Source: Octopus vulgaris
Taxonomy: Eukaryota
Length of the DNA: 64,000 nt
Assembly: GCA_951406725.2 (NCBI GenBank)
Contig: OX597824.1
Coordinates: forward strand, 13,454,001 to 13,518,000
Direction: 5' to 3'
Shown here: piece by piece, positions 6,952 to 48,872 of the stretch
Layout: each line of letters opens with the position of its first letter
How positions within the stretch are numbered: position 1 is the first letter of the stretch
The notes under the pieces: generated by a model
Seen by the model: the letters and a program-made list of their open reading frames with translations, nothing else
What the model was told of the DNA's origin: nothing
Database searches by the model: none
Made by a program: the position numbers and the translations under genes

Positions 6952-7017
<66 letters not shown>

Positions 7018-7089
7018 TCCTCGGTAGTATAGTGGTAAGTATCCCCGCCTGTCAAGCGGGAGACCGGGGTTCGATTCCCCGCCGGGGAG
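7018..7089 (+). tRNA. trnD-GTC: tRNA-Asp(GTC), intact cloverleaf, probably a retroposed copy fused to a LINE tail
   Basis: Acceptor stem TCCTCGG/CCGGGGA plus discriminator G. Anticodon arm CCCGC-CT-GTC-AA-GCGGG (GTC at 7051-7053). T arm CGGGG-TTCGATT-CCCCG. No encoded CCA and only TTT downstream. Confidence 0.93.
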
Positions 7090-7102
7090 GCATGTTACTT
7101 TA

Positions 7103-7161
7103 CCAGGTGGTGCTATTAAGTTAGGCATGGCCTGGGCCAATAATGGCCGAAACCTATCAAA

Positions 7162-7162
<1 letters not shown>
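7103..7162 (+). mobile_element. CR1-group LINE 3' UTR tail attached to tRNA-Asp
   Basis: CCAGGTGGTGCTATTAAGTTAGGCATGGCCTGGGCCAATAATGGCCGAAACCT closely matches 34182-34234, which follows a LINE ORF2 stop codon. Confidence 0.85.
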
Positions 7163-7226
<64 letters not shown>

Positions 7227-7716
7227 GTATGTATAAATATGCATATCTATATTCATACCCACACACACATAGATAGACATATGCACACACAAACACATAC
7301 ACATACGCACACAGATACACACCACACCCACACATGATATCTTTATTTGCTGAAAGGTTTTACAATCTGAGAAAGTGGTGGGAACCGACTAATATGTCTA
7401 TTAATTCAGAATGAATTACGCTATTTCGTAAGCAAAATCGGCACAAAGTACATAAAATGGTCTCACCGCACGATTTCCCACTTGCTATGCGCTACTTTCT
7501 CTAGGGATGATCGTAAAGAAACTGAATGGAATTGTATAGGACTTTTTTTAATTTTCAATGTTACTTCCTATCGTTTCTATGTATTATGTCATTCTTAGTA
7601 CTACTGGTAACATGTGCCCTGGCGTCTGGTCGGGCCGTAGGCAACTAAACCGTGGTGCTCACGTTTAGGAAAGCAGTCAAGACAATGGCATTGCTCGAAA
7701 TCGATTTCCAGCCGTC

Positions 7717-10648: not shown

Positions 10649-11203
10649 TGTGGGTAGTAAAGAAATAGGTATTTCGTCTGCCGTTACGTTCTGAGTTGAA
10701 ATTCCTCCGAGTTCGACTTTGCCTTTCATCCTTTCGGAGTCGATTAAGTAAGTACCAGTTACGCACTGGGGTCGATAAAAGCGACTTAATCCGTTTGTCT
10801 CTCCTTGTTTGTCCTCTCTGTGTTTAGCCCCTTGTGGGTAGTAAAGAAATAGGTATTTCGTCTGTCTTTATGTTCTGAGTTCAAATTCCACCGAGGTCGA
10901 CTTTGCCTTTCATCCTCTCGCGGTCGATGAAATAAGTACCAGTTACGCACTGGGGTCGATAAAATCGACTCAATCCGTTTGTCTGTCCTTGTTTGTCCTC
11001 TCTGTGTTTAGCCCCTTGTGGGTAGTAAAGAAATAGGTATTTCGTCTGTTTTCATGTTCTGAGTTCAAATTCCGCCGAGGTTGACTTTGCTTTCTATCCT
11101 TTCGGGGTCGATAAATTAAGTACGAGTTGCGTAATGGGGTCGATCTAACCGACTGTACCCCTCCCCCAAAATTTCAGGCCTTGTGCCTAGAGTAGAAAAG
11201 AAT
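10649..11203 (+). mobile_element. Tandem array of SINE B units (B1, B1, terminal B2)
   Basis: ~185-bp units joined at GTAAAGAAATA|GGTATTTCGTCTG three times. The last unit has the alternative tail CCCCAAAATTTCAGGCCTTGTGCC. Confidence 0.85.
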
Positions 11204-33111: not shown

Positions 33112-33909
<798 letters not shown>

Positions 33910-34258
33910 GGCTTGGACCACGTTCCATCCGTCCACAACAAAAATCTAAATCACATAACGACAATACGGCACAACTATTTCACCTTAATTGGACCTGCTC
34001 TCTTCAACATTACACCAGGACACGTCAAAAAAGAAACTGACCACACAAAATTCAAGAAGTCTTTGGACAAATTCCTTCTAACAGTACCGGACAAACCACC
34101 CACACCCGGATATGTCTCCGCAAACAATAACTCTCTGCTCGAATGGGCCTTGGTGCCCAAATCCTGAACTGAAAGACTTCGCCAGGTGCTGCTATTAAGT
34201 TAGACATGGCCTGGGCCAATACTGGCCAAAACCTTTCTAAGTTATTCTAAGTTAAGTT
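33910..34258 (+). mobile_element. CR1-group LINE 3' end (second family) inserted in a TA-rich array
   Basis: RHNYFTLIGPALFNITP...KFKKSLDKFLLTVPDKP..PGYVSANNNSLLEW, then a 3' UTR and a TTCTAAG-type tandem tail. The protein resembles that of the 12280 fragment. Confidence 0.85.
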
Positions 34259-34284
34259 ATATATATATGTATCTAGCTAGCTAT

Positions 34285-48294: not shown

Positions 48295-48872
48295 ATTTCT
48301 GTTAAAGCACAAGGTTTGACATTTTGGAGCAATGTACAGTCGATTAGATAGATCCCAGTGTTTTAATGGTACTTAATTTAAATACCCCAGAAGGATGAAA
48401 GGCAGAGTTGACCTCGGTGGAATTTGAACTCAGAACGTTCAGACAGGTGAAATACCTATTTCTTTACTACTCACAAGGGGCTAAACAGAGAGAGGAGAAA
48501 CAAGGACAGACAAACGGATTAAGTCGATTATATCGACCCCAGTGCGTAATTCGTACTTATTTAATTGACCCCGAAAGGATGAAAGGCAAAGTCGACCTCG
48601 GCGGAATTTGAACTCAGAACGTAGTGGCAGAAGAAATATCTATTTCTTTATTGCCCACAAGTGGCTAAACATAGAGGGGACAAACAAGGACAAACAAACG
48701 GATTAAGTCGATTACATCGACCCCATTGCGTAAGTGGTACTTAATTTATCGACCCCGAAAGGATGAAAGACAAAGTCGACCTCGGCAGAATTTGAACTCA
48801 GAAGGTAACGGCAAACGAAATACATCTAAGCATTTCGCCCAGCGTGCTAACGATTCTGCCAGCTCGCCGCCT
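48295..48872 (-). mobile_element. SINE B tandem: head-B1-B1-B2
   Basis: Junctions GAAATACCTATTTCTTTA (~48449) and GAAATATCTATTTCTTTA (~48634), followed on + by an (AAT)n tract to ~49022. Confidence 0.88.

Follow-up and report, generated by a model that had tools for sequence, protein, structure and literature searches.

The 146-nt unit at positions 7018 to 7163 of the window analysed here (64,000 nt of the Octopus vulgaris genome) is a chimeric retrocopy, in which a pre-tRNA-Asp with its own 3′ trailer is joined to the 3′ tail of a LINE. At least 93 tRNA fusions were found on the tails of two LINE families (10 on the tail of the first family, tail 1, and 83 among the first 100 matches on that of the second, tail 2), and they are independent events, not the amplification of one master. 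We assign a probability of roughly 0.7 to the reading that the LINE reverse transcriptase (RT) ran to the end of a template consisting of the tail alone and from there jumped to the oligo(U) end of a pre-tRNA. The first joining of a tRNA to a LINE tail usually has to be deduced from SINE families that are already old and amplified; in octopus the first-step products persist unamplified and in numbers, and the donor trailer and LINE subfamily can be read for each.

The features of the unit and its surroundings are collected in Table 1, in which the A and B boxes are placed according to established tRNA gene anatomy. The preliminary description, made from the sequence of the window, recognized the unit as a retrocopied chimera of a LINE tail and a trailer-bearing pre-tRNA, a reading supported by a candidate donor gene with the predicted trailer (see below); what it overlooked is the recurrence of such fusions and their fixed joining point in two LINE families. 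Its perfect tRNA-Asp(GTC) without CCA is indeed tRNA-Asp(GTC) and lacks CCA (ARAGORN; Rfam RF00005, 62.2 bits) but is not perfect, since 71 of 72 nt are identical to the candidate donor gene and the sole difference is C38A (7055). The linker is short, as described, although its length is 12 rather than 13 nt, A7102 belonging to the LINE tail. The tail itself was said to be nearly identical to the LINE at 34182-34241 and this LINE to be its partner within the window; the two are similar (59/67 in BLAST), but over the tail the unit agrees with subfamily A at 61 of 62 positions (one difference, at 7125) and with the window fragment, of subfamily B, at only 55 of 62. On this comparison, the window LINE belongs to the same family as the tail of the unit without being its direct source. 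Of the two elements reported to lie in pure (TA)n, the unit is so flanked on both sides, whereas the LINE lies in a compound TA/TAGC array (33236-33909, 71% matches). The reported lack of a T4 terminator after the tRNA is correct, the first TTTT occurring only at 7358. The C between (TA)31 and the tRNA is likely an untemplated base, and the target-site duplication is unreadable because the flanks are (TA)n. Two hairpins are predicted in the tail (folding z -2.62), and the whole unit differs from the candidate donor and subfamily A at two positions. The window is rich in microsatellites and contains no long non-repetitive reading frame; 184-bp tandem repeats occur at 10649-11144 and 48338-48823.

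Table 1. Features of the chimeric unit and its surroundings in the window, and tRNA heads matched on tail 1
Feature	Position	Strand	Remarks
(TA)n left flank	6954..7017	+	closing C at 7017 absent from the leader of the candidate donor
tRNA-Asp(GTC) copy	7018..7089	+	starts at mature nt 1; no leader, no CCA; C38A at 7055
Pol III A box	7025..7036	+	same as candidate donor
Pol III B box	7069..7079	+	same as candidate donor
Pre-tRNA 3′ trailer, 12 nt	7090..7101	+	ends in 3 of the 4 T of the donor terminator
LINE 3′ tail, subfamily A, 62 nt	7102..7163	+	hot 5′ end (-1) to terminal repeat
(TA)n right flank	7164..7252	+	target repeat
First TTTT 3′ of the unit	7358..7361	+	predicted Pol III stop; predicted transcript about 340 nt
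5′-truncated LINE, subfamily B	33910..34259	+	C-terminal end of endonuclease/RT ORF, stop 34165-34167; 3′ tail from 34181
Tail-1 heads, Asp			L001, L002
Tail-1 heads, Glu			L031, L032
Tail-1 heads, Sec			L122
Tail-1 heads, Gly			L171, L133 (3′ fragment), L134 (trailer only)
Tail-1 heads, Lys			L172, L169 (5′ half, ends at anticodon T-run)

The trailer at 7090-7101 is identical to that of a tRNA-Asp gene at G000:C5:51235971-51236054 (minus strand), which lies in a 158-bp tandem array. Among the 38 tRNA-Asp genes in the 30 kb of array examined, to which the comparison is confined, this is the only one with the trailer of the unit, and it is regarded as a candidate donor only. The copied part stops inside the T4 terminator of this gene, after three T's, and the leader of the array is missing from the unit. 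The switch point had been considered ambiguous, ACTT being shared with the LINE; however, the candidate donor trailer explains every base to 7101, and the identical base is the joining point also in chimeras with no ACTT in their trailers. In addition, 158-bp tRNA-Asp tandem arrays in both orientations extend over G000:C5:51222000-51304000 (L185-L187; the 38 genes were counted in 30 kb of them), and their trailers vary, so that they can serve as barcodes for donor genes.

The unit is a one-off, single-copy chimera and not a SINE family. A genome-wide DNA search gave 78 matches (40 of 623 candidates scored), two of which are full-length: the unit itself and a locus at C10:29539687 (L002) with a different trailer and a subfamily-B tail. 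Its junction occurs once according to two exact-pattern counts over the whole 2.8-Gb genome. The SINEBase definition (PMC3531059), in the part used here, asks for an interspersed element below 1 kb, at least 60% identity to a tRNA over at least 60 nt, at least 100 copies of common origin with diagnostic changes absent from the cellular gene, and Pol III transcription from the element's own locus. In size and tRNA identity the unit agrees with it (146 nt; 71/72 to a genomic tRNA-Asp gene), but there is one copy rather than a hundred, the other fusions differing in head, trailer or tail subfamily, and its A at position 38 is shared with no second copy, every other tRNA-Asp locus listed in the genome search having C. 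The preliminary description had offered a nascent SINE as one of its two readings. That the unit is a copy of a young minimal SINE might be supposed from its intact A and B boxes, its complete tail and its mere two differences in 146 nt from donor and subfamily A; yet with the junction present once, no shared diagnostic changes and not one daughter pair among the 83 tail-2 fusions, this reading is largely refuted for the present assembly and we consider it extremely improbable.

Other tRNAs on the same tail, for which the preliminary description had advised a check, do exist. A pattern combining the T arm with the tail gave 4 matches in 2.8 Gb, compared to none for the reversed control, and a pattern search for T-arm heads joined farther upstream of the tail-1 joining point gave no match. 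Further heads came from junction patterns (the first 100 of 170 matches to one pattern and all 62 of 62 to a second), and altogether at least 10 tail-1 heads were matched to a known tRNA or trailer (two Asp, two Glu, three Gly, two Lys and one Sec). Three more (L168, L170 and L173), which we take to be tRNA-like, are left out of this number. The matched heads end in 3-9 T and are joined at the purine before CCAGG (position -1), two of them with one extra A. Two heads, L002 (G000:C10:29539687) and L133, are directly preceded by a partial duplicate of the tRNA's own sequence, as from further re-priming by the RT. At another locus (L028, G000:C3:175323190-175323274 and 3′ of it), a tRNA-Asp with trailer and TTT sits directly on the apparent 5′ end of a long SINE copy, which suggests that the jump also occurs at the end of whole SINE templates.

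Two tRNA-Asp matches (L136 and L137) stand on a different tail, which led to the second LINE family. The tail-2 fusion pattern gave 134 matches, compared to 0 for the control, and 83 of the first 100 carry a tRNA head, scored as such by ARAGORN or by similarity to an ARAGORN-called head. The 17 dropped matches (L139, L140, L142, L161, L218, L223, L230, L250, L255, L260, L262, L266, L269, L273, L274, L281 and L284) include three that look tRNA-like. At a low threshold ARAGORN produced noise, and Rfam at E 0.5 on 20 loci with unassigned heads returned microsatellite false matches and one weak tRNA (L230). In 72 of the 83 fusions the T-run of the head ends 3-5 nt before the conserved GGCGG. The independence of the events is evident from the trailers: they recur on both tails and with differing junction lengths, one of them recurs at unlinked loci, and the single pair with identical trailer and link differs in tail subfamily. 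Over both tails the heads represent approximately 14 amino-acid types, Sec included.

Many heads are 5′-truncated, and some have kept introns or a leader. Unspliced introns are present in L138, L146, L163 and L258, and intron-bearing precursors of tRNA-Lys(TTT) (L163, L166 and L276) and tRNA-Leu(CAA) (L138, L146 and L258) have been captured unspliced. Leader-like bases are kept in L172, L138, L244, L248 and L259, of which L172 may be a real tRNA gene with a tail behind it. A leader of 4-5 nt is kept in L244 (C9:20717050), L248, L259 and L160; that of L244 is the leader of the tRNA-Asp array and would mark a Pol III start 5 nt before the tRNA. Mature Glu and Asp ends with CCA gave 0 matches on tail 2, compared to 36 trailer-bearing Glu or Asp heads among the 83 (hand count). 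Since leaders, trailers and introns are kept, capture was probably nuclear, and the heads constitute a fossil record of nuclear pre-tRNA intermediates. In heads of the Glu type, 5′ truncation recurs at nt 24 (L143, L164, L220, L237 and L272) and at nt 10 (L152 and L228), possibly because the RT halts at modified bases or because of AT microhomology with the flanking sequence. The clearest example is tRNA-Sec, with one full-length gene among 8 matches (L294, C24, Rfam 77.7 bits) and three 5′-truncated fusions, two of them on tail 2 (on C4 and C20) and one on tail 1 (on C3); contigs that aligned to the last of these (L122) covered mainly its flanking repeats and failed to bridge the insertion site.

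Tail 2 is also found in SINEs. In the window, six copies of an abundant SINE end in a tail-2 variant (29565, 32792 and 35446 on the plus strand; 19038, 38809 and 51171 on the minus strand). Tail 2 also terminates a young SINE family (L205 and L212; 10 of the 100 rows of the tail-2 sample), whose tRNA-like head of approximately 150 nt scores below the Rfam tRNA threshold. The similarity of this family to LINE 2 starts about 5 nt upstream of the hot end (the recurrent 5′ end of the tail, see below), and its tail boundary thus appears close to, but not provably at, this point. At L140, L161 and L195, SINE-like heads, one of which ends in a T-run, stand directly on tail 2 at the hot end, a possible case of head exchange between SINE families.

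ORF2 of LINE 1, the first family, encodes an APE endonuclease followed by an RT (PF14529, PF03372 and PF00078), a layout common to several other clades, and the element, which from its C-terminal motif presumably belongs to the CR1 group, ends in a predicted hairpin tail that closes in a short tandem repeat without poly(A). The best 120 homologues of its protein carry no clade name, and the only animals named among them are Argonauta (60% identity) and a ctenophore. TA-type repeats lie directly 3′ of approximately 26 of the 30 best LINE 1 copies (judged by eye). LINE 2 is 39% identical to LINE 1 over 457 aa of the RT. The CR1-type SINE tails of bivalves in the supplement of PMC4824008 are, by eye, unlike both tails.

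The 5′ ends of the tails were sampled with patterns anchored inside the tail, by which the junction is not selected for (first 100 rows each, one contig, hand counts). The tail-1 pattern gave 3,498 matches, compared to 37 for the control. Seventy of the first 100 rows continue into the LINE, 11 start at -1 or -2, 1 at -3 and 4 at -15 to -28, while 10 begin at +2 to +13, the stretch from +14 to +32 is free of starts, and 4 were dropped (3 unrelated, 1 ambiguous); in this sample 12 of 16 upstream 5′ ends therefore fall at -1 to -3 of a 34-nt span (p 3e-10). The tail-2 pattern gave 11,328 matches, compared to 0 for the control; among the first 100 rows, 38 continue into the LINE and 11 into SINE bodies; a start at -1 to -4 is seen in 30 (3 of them tRNA-headed), at -11 in 1 and inside the tail in 20, so that 30 of 31 upstream 5′ ends fall at -1 to -4 of 50 nt. 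This clustering is far above a uniform spread, and the hot end is a peak with an inward shoulder (20 of the 100 tail-2 and 10 of the 100 tail-1 rows); for tail 2 it is fixed only within about 4 nt, as the A's at -1 to -3 can stem from AT-rich flanks. The tail-only insertions begin at the same point as the tRNA fusions. An extra T was seen in just 1 of 11 rows at unselected hot ends, the T-rich lists having come from patterns that require TTT. When contigs are aligned to the window LINE, loose ends accumulate at 34182-34183 in two organisms, which is not counted as support because diverged subfamilies depart there too.

Both tails are predicted to fold into two hairpins that share a GGY-GGUGC/CAUG-GCC core, with an A-rich motif behind it. 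Although the local pairing differs, the hot end of each tail is situated 3-4 nt upstream of this core, and the constant offset suggests a protein footprint. Fold-back additions are present at 5 of the 11 tail-1 hot ends, and in three loci (L176, L177 and L178; C9:103501719, C10:11348575 and C6:83708692) tail 1 is preceded by three or four same-register repeats of its own first 16 nt with one added T, a telomerase-like re-copying at the boundary. Together, the fold-backs and 16-nt re-copies look like the work of an RT that primes anew after reaching the end of its template. At one further locus (L175, G000:C18:75000200-75001500), a palindrome is formed by two tail-1 copies in back-to-back orientation with a short hairpin spacer between them, each copy being joined via TTTT at the hot end.

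Three other origins of the hot end were considered and rejected. A self-cleaving ribozyme (HDV-like, hammerhead, twister or pistol) found no match and is rejected for the known classes: Rfam at E<=10 detected no family at all in tail 1 and none of ribozyme type in tail 2, and neither a loose HDV-like descriptor nor the core motif of the hammerhead matched at the hot end. The toeprint of a terminating ribosome was suggested by the stop codon of subfamilies A and B, which lies 17 nt upstream, but the distance varies in other subfamilies. A 3′ splice site does not apply, as the junction precedes CAG rather than following it.

According to the preferred reading, the LINE RT would prime in a (TA)n repeat, copy the tail-only template to its end and then jump onto the oligo(U) 3′ end of a pre-tRNA; to start the jump, untemplated A's on the cDNA would presumably pair with the U-run of the pre-tRNA. 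With regard to the template end 3-4 nt upstream of the hairpin core, we lean slightly towards a real short RNA trimmed to the footprint of a LINE protein, while a boundary at which the RT stalls on intact RNA is possible but holds a smaller share of our confidence. The R2 RT is described as jumping only after untemplated addition, mostly of A (PMC8857657), and such an addition would pair with the Pol III U-run. The same source calls A overhangs of three or more non-productive for jumping and traces human chimeras to prior ligation, which makes ligation by RtcB the main rival.

In the ligation model, a tail fragment of the LINE RNA with a 5′-OH, cut at a fixed pyrimidine-purine step, would be joined by RtcB to a trimmed pre-tRNA with a cyclic phosphate, and the product would be retrotransposed whole. 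Pre-tRNA trailers normally end in a 3′-OH, and they are not known to carry a cyclic phosphate. A 3′-OH end is not an RtcB substrate as described in PMC6789731, where ligation is the demonstrated route for human U6/L1. The model fits the fixed RNA 5′ end and the U-ended heads, and a pyrimidine-purine step does occur at the hot end in subfamilies A and B and in LINE 2; on the other hand, untemplated bases occur at some junctions (L002 and L122), the fold-backs and repeated re-copies found at this point arise at the level of the cDNA, and no known ribozyme class matches at the hot end. Taken together, ligation first is unlikely.

A microhomology-dependent switch, in which the RT crosses over while copying full-length LINE RNA because an upstream pyrimidine run resembles the U-tract, appears more doubtful still. 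CTTC, CTTT or TTTT does precede the junction in the LINE, and ACTT is common to the unit and the LINE, but LINE 2 has no T-run at the junction and nevertheless yielded the 83 fusions among its first 100 matches, tRNA-free tail-only insertions end at the same base, and the junctions show the T of the head rather than the C of the LINE. Insertion of a truncated LINE at the terminator of a resident tRNA gene, through a target preference for the ends of such genes, which a few full-length heads with gene-like upstream bases (L172 and L138) might suggest, is highly improbable, as the unit has (TA)31 and no leader upstream and its candidate donor lies in an array on another contig, one trailer occurs at several unlinked loci, and many heads are 5′-truncated, including all three Sec fusions, which lie on contigs other than that of the intact gene.

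Returning to run-off of the RT on a tail-only template and its jump to a pre-tRNA, a broader and more tentative interpretation, which we are not inclined to favour outright, is that two octopod LINE families release their recognition tail as a discrete RNA-protein adapter of approximately 60 nt that primes in (TA)n, runs off at a fixed end and captures any oligo(U)-ended nuclear Pol III transcript. If true, it would imply hundreds of SINE founders consisting of a promoter and a minimal tail, and would explain why established SINE tails in the genome begin near the same point. Pre-tRNA capture by tail run-off, if true, would itself be a repeatable first step in SINE birth. With an intact A/B-box promoter and a complete RT-recognition tail, the products would be ready-made SINE founders, and since none of the at least 93 has been seen amplifying, they permit rates of SINE birth and failure to be measured. 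The fixed junction explains how a head lands exactly on the minimal recognition element, and jump versus ligation becomes testable in a stringent LINE. Such copies are also accepted as intact genes by tRNA finders, which can make tRNA gene counts too high.

Several known systems resemble the octopus fusions. Chimeras of U6 with L1, L2 and RTE are known (PMC4476161), and, as described there and in PMC6789731, they share with the present fusions a Pol III RNA copied from its 3′ U-run, placed on the same strand 5′ of a LINE 3′ end, and an origin in many independent events; the U6 type also occurs with stringent LINEs. The unit agrees with this type in its oligo(U)-ended Pol III RNA on a LINE 3′ end and in belonging to a series of independent events. 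However, the heads reported in these sources are almost only U6 or U6atac, whereas the octopus heads are pre-tRNAs of the various types given above. Moreover, the LINE part is described there as variably 5′-truncated with no motif at the junction, and human U6/L1 junctions are spread throughout L1 (PMC6789731), while the octopus junction is fixed beside the recognition hairpin, at -1 on tail 1 and within 3-5 nt in 72 of 83 fusions on tail 2, and this fixed junction is the feature that distinguishes them from the U6/L1 type.

In passerine birds, PittSINE and TguSINE1 have a tRNA-Asp (or Ile) head directly on a CR1-derived hairpin tail, and template switching has been proposed for their origin (PMC5729268), as it is here. 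They are amplified and their founding event is inferred, whereas the octopus products are unamplified, number in the dozens and retain readable donor trailers. An earlier snapshot of SINE birth is the SINE-like 5S rRNA retropseudogene formed by LINE template jumping in Dictyostelium (Szafranski 2004), by its title a single 5S element. Nuclear pre-tRNAs have served as templates of a LINE (L1) RT before (Schmitz 2004, as cited in PMC4476161), yielding pre-tRNA retropseudogenes for which that citation mentions no LINE tail. OR1 and OR2, the tRNA-derived SINEs of octopus (Ohshima and Okada 1994), probably come from the same animal group; unlike the fusions described here, they are very numerous and carry a body that separates head from tail, and the abundant SINEs of the window end in tail 2. 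Template switching is also the standard proposal for module exchange among mollusc SINEs (PMC4758252, PMC4824008 and PMC4494074). The main text of the Octopus vulgaris repeat paper, its supplements aside, does not mention chimeras, and full-text searches, outside which most subscription papers fall, turned up no description of pre-tRNAs being captured repeatedly at one fixed end of a LINE tail. Thus, U6/LINE chimeras and the tRNA-Asp/CR1 structure of PittSINE were known, and what appears to be new is that the tails of two LINE families capture pre-tRNAs systematically and at a fixed position.
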